64,000 bases of DNA. Source: Candidatus Kaiserbacteria bacterium. Lineage in GTDB: Bacteria > Patescibacteriota > Minisyncoccia > Phycocordibacterales > Phycocordibacteraceae. A model generated the notes under the pieces. It saw only the letters and a list, made by a program, of their open reading frames with translations, had not been told where the DNA came from and did no database searches. The stretch spans positions 6,331 through 70,330 of the forward strand of contig JACPGH010000003.1 of NCBI GenBank assembly GCA_016182485.1. Direction: 5' to 3'. Of this stretch, positions 29,498-38,845 are shown in pieces; the stretch's first letter is position 1; every line of letters starts with the position of its first letter. The translations under genes were made by a program, and so were the position numbers.

Positions 29498-30331
29498 ATG
29501 TCGCGCGGCGAGGTGCGAATAGGGACGTCCGGGTGGATGTACAAAGATTGGGGTAAAGAATTCTATCCGTCCGGGATGAGGGAGGGTTTCCTGACGTATT
29601 TGGCAGGCGAATTCGACACGGTCGAGATAAACAATTCTTTCTACCATCTGCCGCTCATGAAGACCTTTTCGGCATGGAGGGCTCAAACTCCGGAGCATTT
29701 CCTGTTCGCCGTAAAATTATCGCGTTATATCACGCATAGGAATTTGCCGAGCGCGCGGCAGCCGCTTTTCCGCTTTCTCTCGCACGCGAAGCGGCTGGAG
29801 CATAAACTGGGGCCGATTCTGGTCCAACTCCCGCCCTGGAAGAAATTTTCCGAGGAATGGCTCGGCCGTTTCCTAACGGATGTACAGGCGGCTGCGCAGC
29901 GCGCGCGTATTTCTCCGAGATTCGCTCTTGAACCCAGGCACGCGAGCTGGCTTGAGAATATTGAAACCGTTCGCGAACGACTTCGAGAGGTAAACATAGC
30001 GCTCGCCCAGCACCAAACTGGGTTTGGTGCTGGGCTCGTCTTCCCGCATTCCGCAAAGATACCTTCCATTCCGCCGGACGAGGCAAACATAACCGCAGAT
30101 TTCGCCTATGTCCGTTTCCACGGCCCTTCCGAATTCGCCGCTTCCCGCTACGGGGAGAAGCGCTTAAAGCCGTGGGCGGAACGGATCAGCAAATGGCAGG
30201 AAAAGGGGGTTCAGATATTTTGCTATTTCAATAACGACGTGCATGGACATGCCGTCCATGACGCGCGCACGTTAAAGCAGCTTGTAGGCATCAGCGAGCC
30301 TCGCGCGAGAACTCTTTTTCAAGACGGGTAA
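29498..30331 (+). CDS. DUF72 (YecE-like) family protein
   Basis: IGTSGWMYKDW...FYP...VEINNSFY is the DUF72 N-terminal signature. Start at MSRGEV. Confidence 0.8.
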   Translation: MSRGEVRIGTSGWMYKDWGKEFYPSGMREGFLTYLAGEFDTVEINNSFYHLPLMKTFSAWRAQTPEHFLFAVKLSRYITHRNLPSARQPLFRFLSHAKRLEHKLGPILVQLPPWKKFSEEWLGRFLTDVQAAAQRARISPRFALEPRHASWLENIETVRERLREVNIALAQHQTGFGAGLVFPHSAKIPSIPPDEANITADFAYVRFHGPSEFAASRYGEKRLKPWAERISKWQEKGVQIFCYFNNDVHGHAVHDARTLKQLVGISEPRARTLFQDG

Positions 30332-32138
30332 CGGCCTCCTTAAGGTCCACGCTTTGTGCAAGCATCGGCCGCATCAGGTCGCCTTTCTTCTTGAGCCTTT
30401 CCAAAATCGTTTTGATATTGAACTTCTTTGGCTCGAGGCCCTTCTTCACCTCCCGCCACTCTAGTGGCGTGGAAACAGTCGCGCCGGCGAAAGGGCGCAG
30501 AGAGTAGGGAGCCGCGACGGTTTGCCCATAGCGGTTTTGCAGGTAGTCGAGATATATCTTGTCTTTGCGTTTCTTGGGCGAACGCTCGATGCTCGTTATG
30601 TCGGGCAGTTTACGATGCGCCAGCCGCATGATTAGTTCCGCAAAATCTTTCACCGCCTCATAGGGATACCGCCCGCCGAGCGGCACGAGGATATGCAGTC
30701 CTGTTTTGCCGCTCGTTTTGGGGTAGGAGCGCGCGCCGGCTTTCGCAAGTAGGCGGTTGATTTCGCCTGCGACCGCGATCACGTCCTCGAACGGACGTCC
30801 GTTCGGATCGATATCGAATATCATGAAATCCGGCTTCTCGAGATTCCCGACCCGCGAACTCCACGGGTTGATCTCGATACAGCCGAGATTCGCCATGTAG
30901 AGAAGAGTTTCTTTGTTGTTACAGACTAGATACTCGATCTTTTTCCGGTTCGTATCCGACCAGATCTTTACGCTCTGCGCGAAAGGCGGCACCGCGCCCG
31001 ATATGTCTTTCTGGAAAAAACTCTTGCCCTGCCAGCCGTTCGGATGGCGGTTCAGGTTTTCGGGCCGGCCTTTAAGATAAGGCAGGATGGTCTCGGCCAG
31101 GCGGTCGTAATACTCGATAAGGTCGCCTTTGGTGTAGCCTTCTTCCGGCCAAAAAACTTTATCAAGATTGCTGAAGTGCGGGCTTTTTACTTTTTCTGCC
31201 GCCTCATTCCTCGGGAATTCTCGCACCACTTCCTCGGGCTTTTTATCAATGCGAAGGCCGGCGTATACGGGATGGCGCATGTACCCCTCCGGCGTCCATT
31301 CTGAAAACGCGCTTTCGATTACATATTTCGGGTTCACCCAAGTGATCGGGGAGTTGATCGGCACGCGCTCTTTGAGAGGCGCTGTATTCCGGACTGTTTT
31401 CGACAATGTAGCGTGGAGCTCGGCGAGTTCGCGGTCGGTAAAGCCGCCTCCCGAATGGCCGATATACCTGAGCCGCCCGTTCTCGTATGCGCCGAGCACG
31501 AGAGCGCCTAAGTGCTTGCGCGAGCCGCGCGGCTTCGTGAAGCCGATAATGACGGCTTCCTGTGTATTGAGATTCTTTACTTTGAGCCAGTCCCCGCCGC
31601 GAACTCCCTCGCGATAGGGACTTTTCGGATCCTTAGCCACCATGCCCTCGAGCCCGTGCGCGCGCATGAGGTCGAAGAATTTCTTGCCGTGGTTTTCGGC
31701 GTGTTCGCTAAAAAGCAGGTGTGCGTCGTGCGGCAATATCTCGCGCAGGCGCTTCTTGCGCTCGGAGAGCGGCTTCTGGCGCAGGTCCTCTCCGTCAAAA
31801 TAGAGCAAATCGAATACCGCGTATTGGAGTGGGGAGGGCACATGCTCATAGTCTTGCAGCGCGTGAAAGTCCGGTCTGCCATCCTTAAGCGCGATGATTT
31901 CTCCATCGAGCACGCAAGTATGACGGATCTTCTTAAGGGCTCCCGCGATCGGCGCATACCGTTTTGAGAAATCAATGCCGTGGCGCGAGTAGAGCCGTAC
32001 GGAACCGGACTCGATCTCGGCAATGGCGCGGTAGCCGTCCCATTTCGTTTCGAAGTACCAGCCGTCTTTATCGAACGGCTCGCGAACCAGGGTCGCGAGC
32101 ATCGGGCGCACGCGCCGCGGCATTTGCGCGCGCGTCAT
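30291..32138 (-). CDS. ligD: ATP-dependent DNA ligase LigD, ligase + polymerase (PolDom) domains
   Basis: KWDGYR (KxDG) ligase motif in the N-terminal half; LigD primase-polymerase domain in the C-terminal half. Start at MTRAQMP, a 4-nt overlap with the upstream PE ORF. Confidence 0.85.
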   Translation of the reverse strand: MTRAQMPRRVRPMLATLVREPFDKDGWYFETKWDGYRAIAEIESGSVRLYSRHGIDFSKRYAPIAGALKKIRHTCVLDGEIIALKDGRPDFHALQDYEHVPSPLQYAVFDLLYFDGEDLRQKPLSERKKRLREILPHDAHLLFSEHAENHGKKFFDLMRAHGLEGMVAKDPKSPYREGVRGGDWLKVKNLNTQEAVIIGFTKPRGSRKHLGALVLGAYENGRLRYIGHSGGGFTDRELAELHATLSKTVRNTAPLKERVPINSPITWVNPKYVIESAFSEWTPEGYMRHPVYAGLRIDKKPEEVVREFPRNEAAEKVKSPHFSNLDKVFWPEEGYTKGDLIEYYDRLAETILPYLKGRPENLNRHPNGWQGKSFFQKDISGAVPPFAQSVKIWSDTNRKKIEYLVCNNKETLLYMANLGCIEINPWSSRVGNLEKPDFMIFDIDPNGRPFEDVIAVAGEINRLLAKAGARSYPKTSGKTGLHILVPLGGRYPYEAVKDFAELIMRLAHRKLPDITSIERSPKKRKDKIYLDYLQNRYGQTVAAPYSLRPFAGATVSTPLEWREVKKGLEPKKFNIKTILERLKKKGDLMRPMLAQSVDLKEAVTRLEKEFSREAR

Positions 32139-32722
32139 GGCCGCTTCGAGTCGCGCGGGAGCTTCTTGCCGGTCTTCACCGATTTCGTATCTTTTGTGAC
32201 GTCTTTCGCGCTCGCGTATTTGTCCTTTTCTTTGATCAAGAGCCAAGCATTGTCCTTCCCGCCCTTCTGATTTCGGATTTTCACGAGCGCGAAGCCGCCT
32301 TGGAGCTTTTTGCCGAGCAGGACGAATTTAAGCTCTCCTTCGCCGTACCCCTGTCTAAGCTTTTCGCGGCTCTCTTTCGGGTCGGCCGTTTCGCTCGAGG
32401 TATACAGCCCCTCGTCCCAGACTATGACGTCTCCCGCGCCGTACTCTCCCTCCGGAATGACGCCCTCGAAATCTTTGTATGAATACGGGTGGTCCTCGAC
32501 CTCCATCGCGAGCCGCTTGTCGGCCGGATTGAGCGACGGGCCTTTCGGCACGGCCCAGCTCTTCAGTACGCCGTCTAGCTCGAGGCGGAAATCGTAATGC
32601 AGGCGCGAAGCGTCGTGCTTCTGCACGACGAAATGAAGTGCTCCCGTCCGTGAAGCTTTTTGCGGTTTGGGTTCCGGTGTTTTAGAGAATTTGCGTTTCT
32701 TTTTATATTCAGCTAACGGCAT
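32135..32722 (-). CDS. LigD 3'-phosphoesterase (PE) domain protein, separate ORF
   Basis: HYDFRLE and SWAVPKG motifs of the LigD PE domain. Lys-rich C-terminal tail. Confidence 0.8.
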   Translation of the reverse strand: MPLAEYKKKRKFSKTPEPKPQKASRTGALHFVVQKHDASRLHYDFRLELDGVLKSWAVPKGPSLNPADKRLAMEVEDHPYSYKDFEGVIPEGEYGAGDVIVWDEGLYTSSETADPKESREKLRQGYGEGELKFVLLGKKLQGGFALVKIRNQKGGKDNAWLLIKEKDKYASAKDVTKDTKSVKTGKKLPRDSKRP

Positions 32723-32740
32723 GCTCCTATTTTAGTGGCC

Positions 32741-32768
32741 TTGACATGGTAAAGCAAGTGTGTATACT
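32741..32768 (+). promoter_or_regulatory. Sigma70 promoter (TTGACA-N16-TATACT) for the DGR target gene, divergent from ligD
   Basis: Read directly. AGAGGAG Shine-Dalgarno 8 nt before the ATG at 32843. Confidence 0.55.
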
Positions 32769-32842
32769 ATAAAAAGCTAATGAACGCGGTTCCCGTGTTC
32801 AGGGCAGCTATGTACTTTCGTGCTTTCAGAGGAGATGACGCC

Positions 32843-33475
32843 ATGGCGAAAGCTGTGTCCCCATCCGCAGTGAATCCCATTAGCATTGGGCAGGCCGCGA
32901 AGTTCCTCGACCTGCAGATGGCCGCGCTACGCAAGAGCGGCCTGCCGAGCGGACCAACGCAGCAGGTGCTCGAGAGCCAGGGCGCCGCTCTGGCCGACGA
33001 GTTCGTCACATTGGTCCGTAGGCGCGTCGAGGCAATCTCGGATCTAATCGTCCGCGTCGTCGCGAAGGTCGACCGCTCGCGCACGCCGCAGGAGGCACTC
33101 GACGCGACTGGTCGAACGCAGTACGTCGACCGCGGTGTCGCGAAGGCGATGCCGCGTGGCACGGGCGAGGGTGCCAAGACGGAATTTTTCGAGCTCGATC
33201 TCTCGCGGCGCGGCGGATGGATCAGCGACTCTGACCTCGACAAGGAGTACGCGCTCCGTGGCCTCGTCCCCGAGGATCCTTACTCGCTCGCGGCACAGAA
33301 CGAGGCTGATCCGGCCTTCGCCGACGAGCACCCCAACGCCACGCACTGGAAGGATGCGAATGGCAGTTGGTGTTACGCGGCGTTCTTCCTCTGGCGCGAT
33401 GAGCGCTACGTGCGCGTCCACCGCTGCGACAGCGACTGGCTCGACCGCTGGTGGTTCGCCGGTCGCCGCAAGTAG
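32843..33475 (+). CDS. DGR target (variable) protein with C-terminal VR
   Basis: The 3' ~100 nt (VR) pair with the downstream TR and differ almost only at TR adenines. The C-terminus ...LWRDERYVRVHRCDSDWLDRWWFAGRRK corresponds to TR-encoded ...LWNDERNLNVNRNDNDWNDNWWFAGRRN. Start could also be 32780 or 32810. Confidence 0.7.
   Translation: MAKAVSPSAVNPISIGQAAKFLDLQMAALRKSGLPSGPTQQVLESQGAALADEFVTLVRRRVEAISDLIVRVVAKVDRSRTPQEALDATGRTQYVDRGVAKAMPRGTGEGAKTEFFELDLSRRGGWISDSDLDKEYALRGLVPEDPYSLAAQNEADPAFADEHPNATHWKDANGSWCYAAFFLWRDERYVRVHRCDSDWLDRWWFAGRRK
33375..33472 (+). repeat. DGR variable repeat (VR)
   Basis: Aligns with 33792-33889. TR AAC codons correspond to VR TAC, CGC, CAC, TGC, AGC, CTC and CGC. 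There are 11 A-site substitutions and one non-A (C to G) change. An identical GC-rich 3' end ctggtggttcgccggtcgccgcaa (IMH-like) is followed by hairpins at 33480-33580. Confidence 0.8.
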
Positions 33476-33791
33476 TTCTAGGGACTCGATCCTCGGTTCT
33501 TTCAGAACCTTGGGATTGAGTCCTTGCATTCGGGCTCCGCATTGCCTCACGGCGTGCGGAGTCCTTTCGTTTTGATACAATCGATAACGGCGCTAGGCGA
33601 ATACGCGGGCGACCACGCGTCTCCCGCTGCCCGCGATCACGGTTTCGAGTAGCGTGGTGTATGTAGACCTTAAAAATTGAAGATACTTGGTGCGGACCTC
33701 TCTGGCATTATAATGCCGAATCAGATACAGCTCGGAGATCGGCAGAGGCCTTCAATGGGCAGTGGTACGGATGGAGGTCCGCACATTGCGA

Positions 33792-33889
33792 CGTTCAACC
33801 TCTGGAACGATGAGCGCAACCTGAACGTCAACCGCAACGACAACGACTGGAACGACAACTGGTGGTTCGCCGGTCGCCGCAACTCTTCA
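33792..33889 (+). repeat. DGR template repeat (TR)
   Basis: AAC-rich (8 AAC codons in the VR reading frame). The overlapping six-frame ORF 33677-33985 is incidental. Confidence 0.8.
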
Positions 33890-34303
33890 TTCCCCGGCCC
33901 CGCCCTCATGCGGGGCTTGGTTTTGTTTGGTCAATTGACCATTCCAGCCGCCGAGCATTCTGCCGACCTCCTCAAGCGGAATTGAGAGAGCGGCGTATCG
34001 CTTTGTCTCGAACGAATTTGTTTCCCAGAGCACCATAAGCAGCAGCTTGACGGTATCGAGCTTGCGGATGGCGAGCCGCACCCACGGTTGCTTCTCACTG
34101 CGCTGCAGGACTCCCGCGAATCCGGCGGCCTCGATAACGTCGATAAACAATGCATCAATGCGGTTGCCGAGCGTGTAGCGGTGGAGCTTCGGGAGTTTCT
34201 GATATTCGTACCAAAGCAGATATGCCGCCTTTAATTTCTGCAAAACCGGAAGAATCGTCGGGGGGGGGGGTTGCTCATGGAGTCTTGCATACGACAATAT
34301 CAT
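33887..34303 (-). CDS. avd: DGR accessory variability determinant (Avd)
   Basis: C-terminus EVGRMLGGWNGQ and the upstream helices match Bordetella phage bAvd (EVGRILGSWIAR..., LPKLHRYTLGNRID versus IPRKHGVAREMF). 139 aa. Contains a PPPP stretch encoded by the C11 run. Confidence 0.8.
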   Translation of the reverse strand: MILSYARLHEQPPPPTILPVLQKLKAAYLLWYEYQKLPKLHRYTLGNRIDALFIDVIEAAGFAGVLQRSEKQPWVRLAIRKLDTVKLLLMVLWETNSFETKRYAALSIPLEEVGRMLGGWNGQLTKQNQAPHEGGAGE

Positions 34304-34744
34304 TTCCGTCGAAAACCTGCTTGCCGCATGGCAGGAATTCGCGAAAGGGAAGCGCAAGAAAAGCGATGTGCAGGAATTCGGGCGATATTTGATGCAGAAT
34401 ATTTTGGAGCTACACCGCGACCTTGCGGCCGGCACCTTTAAACACGGCGGGTGCGGACGATTTCGTTATCCTTTCCGCTGAACGAACACAGCTGCTCGAG
34501 TCTCTACGATATATCGTAGTATTTCTCCGCGCCCGTCTGAAACTCACATTGCATCCCGATAAAGTCTCTGTCTAGAGAAGCGACGATTGCCTCATATCTA
34601 GGCATGCTTCGCCATGGCAATACGAACAAACTGCAACAAGTTCCACTCAATGCCGCTAGACTGCTTTCTCAAGCTTGCGGATCCTGCGCTCGTGATCGAA
34701 AATCCGATCCCTATCTCTATCGTGAGCGTCGGAAAGAGATGTGA
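34222..34744 (+). pseudogene. DGR reverse transcriptase remnant (N-terminal region only; frameshifted, multiple stops, 3' truncated)
   Basis: Frame-0 translation DNIISVENLLAAWQEFAKGKRKKSDVQEFGRYLMQNILELHRDLAAGTFKHG aligns with the bRT N-terminus (DQITTWENLWDAYRKTSHGKRRTWGYLEFKEYDLANLLALQAELKAGNYERG). RP..TH..A (motif 2) is recognisable further on. The ATG at 34222 is in frame only if the G tract were 12 nt. Stops at 34479, 34519, 34558 and 34742. No YxDD region anywhere downstream. Confidence 0.7.
34260..34270. repeat. G11 (C11) homopolymer tract at the divergent Avd / RT 5' ends
   Basis: cgtcgggggggggggttgc read directly. It lies within the Avd N-terminal codons and immediately upstream of the RT homology. 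Confidence 0.9.
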
Positions 34745-34760
34745 GTTCATCCTGAATGTC

Positions 34761-35006
34761 TTAAATCCTATTCTGAACCTTTCCTAACGTACGCTGCACG
34801 TCTCCGAGACGGACATCTATATTATCCATGCGATCATCCATCGCATTAAATCTCTGAGTTGTTCTTCCCTCGAAATTGTCAACGCGTTTCTCTACGGTAT
34901 CAAATCGCTTATCTACGGTATCAAACCGCTCATTCATTACCGCAAGCACTTCGCCGAGTGTCGGTTCGGGTATAGCAGCTTTTCTTATCCGCTTCATGTC
35001 TGCCAT
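34761..35006 (-). CDS. Small coiled-coil protein downstream of ku, containing a 21-bp tandem duplication
   Basis: MADMKRIRK...FDTVDKRFDTVEKRVDNFEGRTTQRFNAMDDRMDNIDVRLGDVQ. The DNA 34895-34936 is two 21-bp units with 2 mismatches. Confidence 0.45.
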   Translation of the reverse strand: MADMKRIRKAAIPEPTLGEVLAVMNERFDTVDKRFDTVEKRVDNFEGRTTQRFNAMDDRMDNIDVRLGDVQRTLGKVQNRI

Positions 35007-35037
35007 TGTATCACCCTCACCAAACGGATTGCGGGTG

Positions 35038-35832
35038 CTACCGCGTTCCGGAGTGGGCGGGGCGGCGCTCTTGCTCAAGGCTCTTGCGCAGGGCTTCCAT
35101 GAGATTCCGCATATCGGTCGGGACGGGAGCTTCTTCTTCGGATACCTTGATCGGCTTGCCTTTCGCCTTGCGGGCGATAACTTTCTTCAGATCGCCGGTA
35201 TAGGTGTCCTTATATTGGCTCGCGTCGAAATGTTCCTCGAGCTGCTTGATGAATGCGACGGTAAGGTCGAATTCTTTGCTTGAAAATTTAGTAGATTCGG
35301 GGATATGCAGGTCTGTAGGCTTGCGTAATTCCTCTTCGAATCGCAGGCGGATGAGCATGAGCGCCTTGCCCTCGGGCTTGAGCATGGCGATATGCTCGCG
35401 GTCTTTCAGAACGAACGTGCCTATGCCGACCTTTTTAGAACGCGCCAGCGCTTCGCGCAGGAGCACGTACGCTTTCTCGGCGCTCGGATCCGGCTCCAGA
35501 TAATACGGCTTTTCTATGAACCGGCTTTCTACCTCCTCCTCGTTCGCGAAGCTCTGCACGTCGATCGTCTTGGTCTTCTTGGGCGCCGCTTTCTCGAAAT
35601 CCTCATCGGTCAGTATCACATAATCGCCCTTCTGATATTCGTAGCCTTTTACGATATCTTCGGGTTTCACCTCCTCATTCGTCCCGCGACATACCTTGAG
35701 GTAGCTGATGGGGCAGTGCCCATGCTTGTCGAGCAGGCGGAACGAGAGCGCCCGCTCCTCGCTCGCGTTGTAAAGCTTTACGGGTATGGATACTAGGCCG
35801 AAAGTAAGCGCGCCTGACCAGATTGCTCTCAT
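35038..35832 (-). CDS. ku: Ku protein (NHEJ DNA end-binding)
   Basis: MRAIWSGALTFGLVSIPVKLY N-terminus and Ku core. Lys-rich C-terminal tail. 264 aa. Confidence 0.9.
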   Translation of the reverse strand: MRAIWSGALTFGLVSIPVKLYNASEERALSFRLLDKHGHCPISYLKVCRGTNEEVKPEDIVKGYEYQKGDYVILTDEDFEKAAPKKTKTIDVQSFANEEEVESRFIEKPYYLEPDPSAEKAYVLLREALARSKKVGIGTFVLKDREHIAMLKPEGKALMLIRLRFEEELRKPTDLHIPESTKFSSKEFDLTVAFIKQLEEHFDASQYKDTYTGDLKKVIARKAKGKPIKVSEEEAPVPTDMRNLMEALRKSLEQERRPAHSGTR

Positions 35833-35911
35833 ATAACTACTATGACCCGCCCCGAATGACGGTTCGATGAATCAGGATAAGTGGAACGTTTTCCACATGG
35901 TCATGGCCATA

Positions 35912-35993
35912 TATACCCCCCTCAGGGTATACTGGCCGTATACCATCTTTCGTATGGAAAAACTTTGACCAATACCCCCATAGGGTATATACT
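35912..35993 (+). promoter_or_regulatory. csoR promoter (TTGACC-N17-TATACT) with two CsoR-type operators (TATACCC-N6-GGGTATA and ATACCC-N5-GGGTAT)
   Basis: Operator 1 is tatacccccctcagggtata (35912-35931). Operator 2 is atacccccatagggtatat (35972-35990) and overlaps the -10 element. Confidence 0.6.
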
Positions 35994-36000
35994 TTGAGAC

Positions 36001-36273
36001 ATGGAATATATGCCCAAAACGGAGAAAGGGAAACTTGTGCGCCGGCTCAAGATTATCGAGGGGCAGGTGCGGGGGCTTGTCGCGATGATCGAACGGGACA
36101 CCTATTGCATCGACGTCATAACTCAGACTTCGGCGGTGAAGCAAGGACTTTCCACGGCAGAGGACCTGCTCATGAGGAATCACCTGAATAACTGCGTCCG
36201 GAACCAAATGTCGTCAGGGCAGGCGCTAAAAGCCGTTAGCGAGGTTATGAAGGTGTATAAATTGAAGAAATAG
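36001..36273 (+). CDS. csoR: Copper-sensing transcriptional repressor CsoR/RcnR family
   Basis: [33 protein letters not shown] with the conserved Cys and His ligand positions. 90 aa. Confidence 0.8.
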
Positions 36274-36280
36274 CACTTGC

Positions 36281-38845
36281 ATGAAAACACAAACATATAA
36301 GATCCACGGTATGCACTGCGCGAGCTGTGTGGCGGTCATCGAGCGCGTACTTGGCAGAACGGTCGGCGTCCGCTCCGCCTCCGTAAATTTCGCTGCCGAA
36401 TCCGCCCTAGTCGAATTCGATGAAAAGGCGGTTTCAGAGCCGCAACTTGCCGAAGCGGTCGCTTCCGCCGGCTATCATCTGATCACCGGCGCAACTGATG
36501 GACAAACTGATGGACACGTCGCGTCCATCAAAGCTGAAGGACACGACGTGTCTACAACCCGGACCATTTCAATCCAAGTGCTCGGTATGGATTCGCCGCA
36601 TTGCGCCATGGTCGTAGAGGGCGCGCTCAAGAATCTGCCCGGCATACGGAACTCCGAACTGGATTTCGCCAACCAGCGGGCGAAGATTTCTTTCGACTCC
36701 CCGTTGACCGCAGAGCAAATTTTCGCAGTGATCCGTGACGCCGGATACAAGCCCTTTCTTGAGGAGGGGAGGGCAGAAGACCTTTTGGACAGGGAGAAAG
36801 TCGAACGGGAACAAGAGGCGCGGATCATGAGGCGCAAGCTTGCGGTAGGGGGAATTCTGGCGGTGCTCGTATTTCTCGGCAGCTTCCCGCAATGGTTCCC
36901 GTTCATGCCCGAGATAGCAAGGAATCCCTGGACCCTGCTCCTCCTCACCGCCCCGATCCAGTTCTGGGTCGGTTCGCAATTCTATAACGGGCTCAAATTG
37001 CTGGTGAAATACCGGACGGCTGACATGAACACGCTGGTTGCCATCGGCACTCTCTCCGCATTTCTTTACAGCGCGGCAGTCACGGCCTTTCCAGACTTCT
37101 TCATGCGGGGCGGTATCGCGCCCGAGTTATACTTCGACACCTCGGCCATAATCATCGTTCTTATCCTCTTGGGAAAGTATTTTGAGATCCAGATGAAAGG
37201 CCGAGCTTCAGAAGCGATAAAGAAGCTCATCGGACTACAGCCGAAGACGGCTATAGTCCTTCGGGATGCAAAAGAAGTTGAGATACCCATCATCGAAGTC
37301 GTCCCTGGAGACAGAGTCATCGTCCGCCCCGGGGAGCGCATACCGGTAGACGGGAAGATTCTCGACGGAGAATCTGAAGTGGACGAGTCAATGCTCACCG
37401 GAGAATCTATGCCCGTTCATAAAAAGGCGGGGAGCATGGTCATCGGGAGCACGATAAACAAATTCGGTACCTTTAGCTTTGAGGCCGCCAAAGTCGGCAA
37501 GGACACCATTCTTGCGAGGATAATAAAGATGGTGGAAGAAGCTCAGGGCTCTAAAGCGCCGATCCAGCGGTTGGCGGACCTTATTTCCTCTTATTTCGTG
37601 CCGGCAGTTCTCGGTATTGCGATCGCCACCTTTGGCGTCTGGCTCTTTTTCGGCCCGGCACCAGCCTTCACGTTCGCTCTAGTTAATTTTGTAGCAGTTC
37701 TCATCATCGCCTGCCCGTGCGCGCTCGGCCTCGCCACGCCAATGGCTATCATGGTTTCTGCTGGCAGCGCCGCCGGGAAGGGGATACTGATAAAAGACGC
37801 GGCTTCGCTCGAGATCGCGAACAAAATCAACACGGTCGTCCTCGATAAGACAGGCACGCTCACGGTGGGGAAGCCGGAGTTGACCGATATCGTCGCCTGG
37901 AATAACGCGCAGCAGCCGGAGGTTCTTCACTATGCCGCGTCGCTCGAGCAGAGGTCGGAGCATCCGCTCGCGCAAGCCATTCTGCAATATGCCGCGAGCC
38001 TGGATCAGAAATCGTCGCATCCTTTGGATAGCGCGATCATCGCCGAAGGCGCAAAGGAGAAGCTCGCTCTCTACCGGCTGGAAGATTTTCAGGCTATTTC
38101 CGGTAAGGGTTTGCGCGGGTATTTGTTCGACGGTTCGCAGAAATATGAAGCGCATCTCGGTAACCGGAGCCTTATGGAAGATATAGGGCTTTCGACTGCG
38201 CCGTACGAAAAAACGATTGCCGATCTCGAGAGCCAGGGGAAGACCGTCATGATCCTCGCGGCAGAAAGAGAGATCAAGGGCGCGCTCGCGGTGGCGGATG
38301 TGCTGAAGAAAGAATCTGCCGCCGCAGTCCGAACGCTCAGGAAAAAAGGCATAGACGTCTGGATGCTTACGGGAGACAACGAGCGCACGGCTCGCGCTAT
38401 CGCGAAAGAAGCCGGAATAGAGAATGTAATGAGCGGCGTTCTCCCCGATCAGAAAGCGCTCAAAATACGCGAACTGCAGACGGCGGGGAATATCGTCGCG
38501 ATGGTGGGCGACGGCATAAATGATGCGCCGGCGCTCACGCAGGCGAATATCGGCATCGCCATGGGAGAAGGCACGGATATCGCGATGGAATCAGCGAACA
38601 TAACGCTTATGCGCGGGGACCTGAGGCTTATTCCGGAAGTGATCCAACTCTCGCAGCGGACTTTGCGGATAGTCAAGCAGAACCTGTTCTGGGCCTTCTT
38701 CTACAACATCGCGTTCATCCCCGTCGCGGCAGGAGTCTTATATCCGTTTTTCGGCCTCCTGCTCAATCCGATCTTCGCGGGCGCCGCCATGGCCGCGAGC
38801 AGCATCAGCGTAGTGCTCAATTCCCTGCGGCTTCGGAGTGTATAG
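36281..38845 (+). CDS. copA: Copper-translocating P1B-type ATPase
   Basis: Two HMA domains (GMHCASC and MDSPHCA), CPC motif (ACPCALG), [17 protein letters not shown]. 854 aa. Confidence 0.95.

Follow-up and report, generated by a model that had tools for sequence, protein, structure and literature searches.

A decayed diversity-generating retroelement cassette between ku and ligD in a Candidatus Kaiserbacteria genome, a probable insertion into a tight repair operon

Introduction

In conventional NHEJ (non-homologous end joining) of bacteria, the three LigD domains are carried by one protein, and in 75% of the bacteria with this type ku and ligD are found at most 10 kb apart. NHEJ with LigD domains on separate proteins is also a recognized category, and NHEJ was associated with large genomes in the same published survey (PMC7719229). 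The genes of diversity-generating retroelements (DGRs) move as a cassette, their chromosomal location is the most labile of their features, and their horizontal transfer is frequent (PMC5758913). This survey of DGRs by Wu et al. (2018) cites an earlier survey of the candidate phyla radiation (CPR) and DPANN. Here we describe a locus at which the two systems meet. It lies in a stretch of 64,000 nucleotides from Candidatus Kaiserbacteria bacterium (contig JACPGH010000003.1, positions 6,331 to 70,330; hereafter the window), in which a DGR cassette that has lost most of its reverse transcriptase (RT) is located between ku and the genes for LigD.

The window shares with the bacterial ku-ligD operon encoding a Pseudomonas-type LigD the presence of Ku and the domain order 3'-phosphoesterase (PE), ligase (Lig) and primase-polymerase (Pol), all on the same strand. 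While the relatives keep the operon in its tight form, ku and ligD of the window are 2.3 kb apart with an oppositely transcribed gene between them. In contrast to conventional NHEJ, PE and Lig-Pol are separate in the window, which makes the system non-conventional, and although NHEJ has been reported with large genomes, the host is a CPR bacterium with a small genome. With the known DGRs of CPR/Parcubacteria (PMC5758913), the window has in common a target gene whose C-terminal part contains a variable repeat (VR), differences from the template repeat (TR) at adenines only, Avd, and an RT of the same family. The layout target(+)-TR-avd(-)-RT(+) is also common to the window and 14 intact relatives. 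The window differs from them in that its RT is a pseudogene with two internal deletions, its VR is invariant between samples, and its cassette is situated inside an NHEJ operon, a position occupied in none of 80 related loci.

Results and discussion

Layout of the NHEJ genes

The NHEJ genes of the window are listed below (all coordinates are window positions unless a locus is named).

35038..35832, minus strand: ku, 264 aa (Pfam Ku PF02735, E=3.3e-49, profile positions 2-189 of 190)
32135..32722, minus strand: LigD PE, stand-alone, 195 aa (Pfam LigD_N, E=2.2e-44; exact copy in L033 and L034)
30291..32138, minus strand: LigD Lig-Pol, a separate open reading frame (ORF) of 615 aa (Pfam; a 615-aa gene is also called in the independent assembly L033)
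32135..32138, minus strand: ATGA stop/start overlap of PE and Lig-Pol (direct reading of the sequence)

Ku, which is named "Ku protein [Candidatus Kaiserbacteria bacterium]" at NCBI, and the LigD domains in the order PE-Lig-Pol are encoded on one strand. The ligase and LigD Prim-Pol matches sit in the ORF 30291-32246(-), and Lig-Pol matches DNA_ligase_A_M (4e-35), DNA_ligase_A_C (7e-25) and LigD_Prim-Pol (2e-87). All scores for the LigD domains (PF01068, PF04679, PF21686 and PF13298) are far above the cut-offs, and the motifs KWDG, FDIDP and HYDFRLE are legible in the LigD translations. Nine relatives were used to define invariant alignment columns, and at these columns 4 unique changes, all of them conservative, were counted in the window LigD and 0 in the window Ku; by the same measure, the relatives themselves have 1-21 changes in LigD and 0-17 in Ku. 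As judged from their sequences, Ku, PE and Lig-Pol of the window are full length and show no sign of decay.

The interval from the end of ku to the beginning of PE (32723-35037) measures 2,315 bp, in agreement with a preliminary description of the window that had placed about 2.3 kb between ku and ligD. It contains a DGR target gene with a VR, a TR, avd, an RT pseudogene and a small gene for a coiled-coil protein. An assembly artefact can be dismissed as the source of this layout. Logan contigs from four runs (SRR12113420, SRR12113422, SRR12113424 and SRR12113390) encode Ku and PE proteins identical to those of the window, the identity of the Logan contigs to the window is at least 99.94%, and two contigs, L034 (window 30645-34148) and L001 (33840-42435), tile the entire insertion. 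Two single-base differences between the window and the Logan contigs were seen, C/G at 33821 in the TR and C/A at 34111 in avd, the latter of which alters one residue. A scan of 32000-36300 against Rfam at E<=1 gave no match.

ku and ligD in relatives

A scan with the Ku protein over genomes, one per species, gave 28 loci, to which all window proteins were compared by tblastn. The closest Ku loci belong to metagenome-assembled genomes of Paceibacterota/Parcubacteria, with Ku identities of 78, 70, 66 and 64%. In 23 of the 28 loci, ku is immediately followed on its own strand by genes for PE, Lig or Pol, and these contiguous loci come from Paceibacterota (78-52% Ku identity), other CPR, Chlamydiae, Syntrophaceae, Planctomycetes and Devosia. 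The other five comprise one locus with an adjacent but divergent ligD, three with Ku alone and one that is truncated. ku and ligD are also contiguous in L042 and L043 (75% identity), and only 3-12 nt separate the ku stop from the PE start in the six closest relatives (L005-L008, L042 and L043). The target gene, avd, RT and the coiled-coil gene had no tblastn match in any of the 28 Ku loci.

The premise of the preliminary description that ku and ligD are normally adjacent is therefore sound, and the comparative synteny that it had proposed as a check favours its suggestion of a DGR insertion into the repair locus, the relatives being contiguous and devoid of cassette parts. Since ku and ligD are contiguous in relatives, the ancestral state was most probably a tight operon, and the 2.3 kb an insertion into it. 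Relatives with the same intervening genes but without VR/TR, which would point to ancestral neighbours, were looked for and not found among these loci. It is true that the arrangement is known from one genome, whose nearest relative is 78-79% identical in Ku, so that the intervening genes might be imagined as ancestral neighbours in this lineage, with contiguity elsewhere produced by deletion. We consider this extremely improbable, because ku and ligD are contiguous both in the nearest Paceibacterota and in members of other phyla, the gap being just 3-12 nt wide in the six nearest relatives, none of the intervening genes is near Ku in any relative, the same cassette is present in many other genomic contexts (see below), and many independent and precise deletions would be needed. 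The number of Ku relatives scoring E<=1e-60 was 1,173, and a collection of 5.8 billion proteins contained no Ku relative between 79% and 100% identity.

Ku and LigD are common in small-genome CPR, including Paceibacterota and Nomura-, Doudna- and Saccharibacteria (L005-L012, L019, L020, L022-L025). Their wide distribution in small-genome Parcubacteria is at odds with the reported association of large genomes with NHEJ.

The target gene and its repeats

The following elements form the target side of the cassette.

32741..32768, plus strand: sigma-70-like promoter of the DGR target gene, TTGACA-16-TATACT, with 11/12 consensus matches, divergent from PE
32843..33475, plus strand: DGR target (variable protein) gene, 210 aa (470 homologues; GGAGATGACGCC-ATG start context)
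33377..33471, plus strand: VR, in the 3'-terminal part of the target gene; the final 24 nt match the TR without difference and resemble an initiation of mutagenic homing (IMH) site (repeat comparison)
33788..33882, plus strand: TR, the sole partner of the VR in the window (mismatches at TR adenines)
33896..33917, plus strand: GC-rich hairpin with a T-rich tail, terminator-like, directly after the TR and, on the opposite strand, within the 3' end of avd

The VR/TR pair is 95 nt long and has 17 mismatches in the window, of which 16 are at TR adenines. The single mismatch at another base (33821) is a G in L033 and L034, where it matches the VR and leaves 16 of 16 mismatches at TR adenines. With all mismatches but this one at adenines of the downstream copy, the pair carries the signature of a DGR, in which the copy within the gene is the VR and the downstream copy the TR. 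No second VR-like site was found in the window. The VR covers the last ~32 codons of the target gene, and these positions are hypervariable across 34 homologues. The hairpin at 33896-33917 could end the TR transcript or belong to an RNA used for priming.

The promoter faces away from PE, just as the preliminary description had it, which called the target promoter divergent from ligD. In the same description, the gene itself began at 32780; the conserved GGAGATGACGCC-ATG context and all homologues point instead to 32843 as the most likely start, giving 210 aa, and the longer ORF 32780-33475 (231 aa) is probably unused. By exact look-up, the 231-aa form was not on record and the 210-aa form was; the window target protein is MBI2409618.1 at NCBI, has the locus tag HYV30_01075 and is encoded on a contig of 150,032 bp. 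The 90% cluster of the target consists of one sequence in two start versions (210 aa and 231 aa) on 8 contigs. The protein has no Pfam match. Its AlphaFold2 model has a predicted local distance difference test (pLDDT) score of 93.6, and the best structural match of this model is a C-type lectin (3whd), which is weak (E=0.17).

The GGAGATGACGCC-ATG element ahead of the target gene (32825-32845) is near-invariant in DNA across proteins that are 50-70% identical, and it was found at the same position in L035, L047, L048, L060, L077, L095, L100 and L121. A leader with a long hairpin precedes GGAGATGACGCC in several loci, and the element together with the leader region may be a conserved regulatory RNA.

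Decay of the reverse transcriptase

The remaining two DGR genes are arranged divergently.

33887..34303, minus strand: avd, intact, 138 aa (Pfam bAvd, E=3.9e-7, 31 bits, which is below the 40-bit gathering score)
34239..34639 (approximate), plus strand: RT pseudogene, three fragments in shifting frames (tblastn of the L035 RT; weak RVT_1 match)

avd is on the strand opposite to the target gene, TR and RT. Its product is 63% identical to Avd of the intact cassette in L035, and the Logan gene call of avd carries PF22296 on record. In contrast to avd, RT has been largely removed. When compared with the 353-aa RT of L035, it keeps residues ~4-75, 240-279 (ADDFVILS...LHPDKVSV) and 318-342, and it lacks residues ~76-239, upstream of YADD, and 280-317, with YADD reduced to ADD. 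The remnant is identical in L001-L003 and across four independent assemblies. Because most of RT has been lost, the local DGR is dead and unable to copy the TR into the VR, and the cassette and its variable protein look frozen unless an RT acts on them from elsewhere in the genome.

We therefore weighed whether the DGR could still be active, with an intact RT elsewhere and the local Avd diversifying the VR from the TR. The intact 138-aa ORF of avd would fit such activity, as would the strong, near-consensus promoter retained by the target gene and the agreement between TR and VR, which extends to 68-69 of 69 non-A positions and includes an identical 24-nt 3' end. It is, moreover, common for target homologues to have no RT nearby (9 of 25 loci, see below). 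However, the window, L033 and L034 share one VR sequence, as indeed do all assemblies, which represent at least four samples; the 64-kb window contains no other YxDD-type RT; and no example of an RT working on a distant TR was studied or came to light in this analysis. Continued activity is thus unlikely, and a frozen cassette fits these observations better.

The overlap of the 5' ends of the divergent avd and RT genes is 14 nt in L035 (9385-9398), and the corresponding junction of the window is at 34239-34303. This junction contains a run of 11 G (34260-34270) that is stable in all assemblies.

The cassette family in Parcubacteria

The 470 homologues of the target protein are ~200 aa long, come from Kaiser-, Zambryski-, Andersen- and Yonathbacteria and Paceibacterota, and are hypervariable at the C-terminal ~30 positions. 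A metagenome scan with the alignment of the target family gave 80 loci, and 25 of these were non-redundant and had at least 2.6 kb of sequence downstream. Among the 25, 14 are complete, with the layout target(+)-TR(+)-avd(-)-RT(+) and TR/VR mismatches confined almost entirely to A, two are partial, and nine have the target gene alone, without a TR. In L035, for example, target(+), avd(-) and a 353-aa RT(+) lie between recO and macB. Since family members share this layout, the divergent avd/RT arrangement of the window is native and not a rearrangement. The two partial loci are decayed cassettes: L097 (7956-9394) has TR and avd but no RT, and L115 (813-2233), located directly upstream of rpsS, has TR and an RT fragment (residues 239-344) but no avd.

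The intact cassette, whose family is common in Parcubacteria, is ~2.5 kb long and fits closely between its neighbours. Upstream, the neighbouring gene is usually 81-208 nt away from the target start (845 and 985 nt in two loci); downstream, the spacing between the RT stop and the next gene runs from an overlap up to 66 nt, with one exception of 218 nt. The neighbours are unrelated housekeeping genes that differ from cassette to cassette: RecO/MacB, IleRS/RecO, LigA/GatC, RF1/L31, MAP/NDK, GyrA/methyltransferase, TatD/S6, Mur ligase/NIF3, RuvA/DUF2914, TsaD/fn3, GH18/methyltransferase and ParE/PilM. None of the 80 loci contains Ku, PE, Lig-Pol or DUF72. The cassette ends in 14 loci have no motif in common except the target start context. 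The scan of viral contigs with the target alignment gave no relatives of the target family, so that a phage-borne origin, which we had considered, found no support. The cassette of L121, like that of the window, is oriented against the co-oriented gene pair that it splits (rpmE/prfA in L121). GyrA beside the cassette of L095 (4157-7792) holds an intein (PF14890, E=2e-20).

The neighbours invite the question of whether the position in the window is functional, that is, whether this DGR family favours DNA repair genes, through shared regulation or repair-dependent integration of cDNA, with ku/ligD as one such site. A replication or repair neighbour is present in 6 of 16 distinct contexts (RecO twice, LigA, GyrA, RuvA and Ku/LigD; L035, L053, L077, L095, L111 and the window), and the binomial p for this excess is 0.003-0.08, depending on the assumed background. 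The excess is nevertheless weak and the test post hoc. The two RecO cases are perhaps not independent, the ten other contexts involve translation, cell-wall or other genes, Ku or LigD occurs in 0 of the 80 other loci, and the copy beside ku/ligD is the one whose RT is dead. Taken together, these points make a functional preference very improbable.

The split of PE and Lig-Pol

The preliminary description had also reported separate PE and Lig-Pol ORFs that overlap by 4 nt, and this was verified by direct reading. The plus-strand letters tcat at 32135-32138 represent, on the minus strand, an ATG (32138-32136) overlapping a TGA (32137-32135) by 4 nt. Independent gene calls on the Logan assemblies gave proteins of 195 aa and 615 aa with the same 4-nt overlap, and three assemblies agree. 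In the four closest genome relatives (L005-L008), PE and Lig-Pol are in one open frame of 817-854 aa. The PE frame of the window matches that of L005 through RDSKRP and then meets a stop, and the Lig-Pol frame matches from R(V/I)RPMLAT on. Between these two motifs, the linker is 29 nt long in the window versus 48 nt in the fused gene of L005, and it is because of these 19 missing nucleotides that a stop, a change of frame and the ATGA overlap are found here. The split is real and, on this comparison, derived from a fused gene. Translational coupling of PE and Lig-Pol via the ATGA is plausible.

PE is encoded separately in the more distant CPR relatives L009, L010 and L019 as well, so the window resembles known stand-alone LigD domain proteins, in which PE is a polypeptide of its own beside the other domains. 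The fission in the window differs from these in being recent and traceable, with four closest relatives fused and a linker shortened by 19 nt. We also considered L042 as a second relative with a split LigD and rejected it, the break there being an A7 frameshift inside the PE domain.

The split could instead represent an early stage of ligD decay after disruption of the operon rather than a functional two-protein arrangement. It is derived relative to L005-L008, it occurs in a genome whose ligD was cut off from ku, and when the PE frame is read on past the stop, a likeness to the L005 linker persists (RARK versus NARK), all of which would suit decay. On the other hand, both ORFs are full length with high Pfam scores for all domains, LigD has no excess of substitutions at invariant columns, and the new Lig-Pol start overlaps the PE stop as ATGA. 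A stand-alone PE with Lig-Pol is also present in L009, L010 and L019, and NHEJ with LigD domains on separate proteins is a recognized category (PMC7719229). We accordingly regard decay of ligD as rather unlikely.

A probable course of events

On the evidence above, it is probable that a tight ku-ligD operon was interrupted by a DGR cassette, which then decayed. In the ancestor, ku would have been followed within 3-12 nt by one fused PE-Lig-Pol gene. A cassette of ~2.5 kb, consisting of promoter, leader, target gene with VR, TR, avd in opposite orientation and RT, would have entered precisely at the junction, after the ku stop and before the ligD start, its target gene directed away from ligD. 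Most of RT would then have been lost through two internal deletions and frame shifts, and with it the local copying of TR into VR. The variable protein would now be fixed in one sequence, with its strong promoter, intact ORF and intact avd kept. Lying 2.3 kb from ku behind an oppositely transcribed gene, ligD may be expressed by read-through or from a weak new promoter. In a separate event, shortening of the linker by 19 nt would have broken the fused ligD up into two ORFs that meet at the ATGA, a junction that is probably read by termination-reinitiation.

Several observations weigh against this account. No target-site duplication, terminal repeats or recombinase were found, and the repeats around 32723-35037 are short and at chance level. 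The closest relative has a Ku identity of 78-79%, and neither a pre-insertion state nor a state with an intact RT was seen in a near-identical genome. TR and VR still agree at nearly all non-A positions and avd is still intact; either the loss of RT would be very recent, or an RT elsewhere in the genome would still serve the TR/VR pair. Finally, no sigma-70-like promoter for PE on the minus strand scored above the scan threshold. A hand-picked PE promoter, TTGCTT-17-TAAAAT, was discarded, having 8/12 matches only. There is likewise no terminator-like site on the minus strand between ku and PE, and read-through from ku via the coiled-coil gene and avd and antisense to the target gene is therefore possible.

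A bolder proposal would make the ~2.5-kb cassette a self-contained mobile unit that enters short gaps between housekeeping genes without an integrase or transposase, perhaps through capture of DNA or cDNA by Ku/LigD at a double-strand break and perhaps with a bias to repair loci, the insertion between ku and ligD being its footprint. We regard this as decidedly unlikely.

The coiled-coil gene and DUF72

Two further genes border the elements described above.

34761..35006, minus strand: small coiled-coil gene, 81 aa, between ku and the cassette
29498..30331, plus strand: DUF72 gene (Pfam PF01904, E=2.4e-64; a 277-aa gene is called in L033)

In the preliminary description, the retroelement cargo was composed of the target gene, TR, avd, an RT remnant and the coiled-coil gene. 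All five are present, and the first four belong to the DGR; the coiled-coil gene is a separate small gene and not a DGR component. It has one detectable homologue, P0121 (51% identity), which lies between rplB and rpsS in the ribosomal protein operon of another genome, and no DGR remnants were detected beside P0121 in a relaxed search. None of the 80 cassette/target loci and none of the Ku loci contains the gene. The possibility that its 5' end is a duplicated PE start (MA..KR.RK..PEP) was rejected, since P0121 shares a different conserved N-terminal block, EPTLGEVLAVMNERF.

Small genes wedged into conserved CPR operons were also observed elsewhere (L041 2108-3141 and 6001-6680; L037 7240-8687). 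These cases are the coiled-coil homologue with a 75-aa ORF in rplB/rpsS, a PaaX_M-like gene in rpsJ/rplC, and a PaaX_M-like gene with a stand-alone target homologue in rpmE/rpsB.

The DUF72 gene and Lig-Pol are convergent, and their 3' ends overlap by 41 nt. A DUF72 gene is found beside ku-ligD in the window and in six relatives, on either side and including Syntrophaceae (L005 13233-14018, L006 9165-9917, L007 186-929, L008 9129-9911, L016 9479-10204 and L018 11880-12605). A literature search found no paper naming both DUF72 and LigD.

Implications

The components of this locus are all of known kinds, namely a CPR DGR, decay of a DGR, a ku-ligD operon and stand-alone LigD domains, and our findings leave the knowledge of how DGRs or NHEJ work unchanged. 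What is new is the event itself, a cassette in a gap of a few bases in an NHEJ operon together with the empty site in relatives, and, in addition, a traceable fission of LigD and a DGR caught midway in decay, without its RT. Together, the relatives with their empty site and the window with its filled one make a before-and-after pair, which indicates that a whole DGR cassette can enter an intergenic gap of 3-12 nt in a tight CPR operon with no recognizable recombinase. The locus is also a natural example of disruption of an NHEJ operon and of a traceable LigD fission in which the genes are still conserved. As a stage of decay in which RT is gone and TR, avd and the target gene are intact, the window fits the family's series of 14 full, 2 partial and 9 target-only loci, and this series suggests a route by which "orphan" variable-protein genes may arise.

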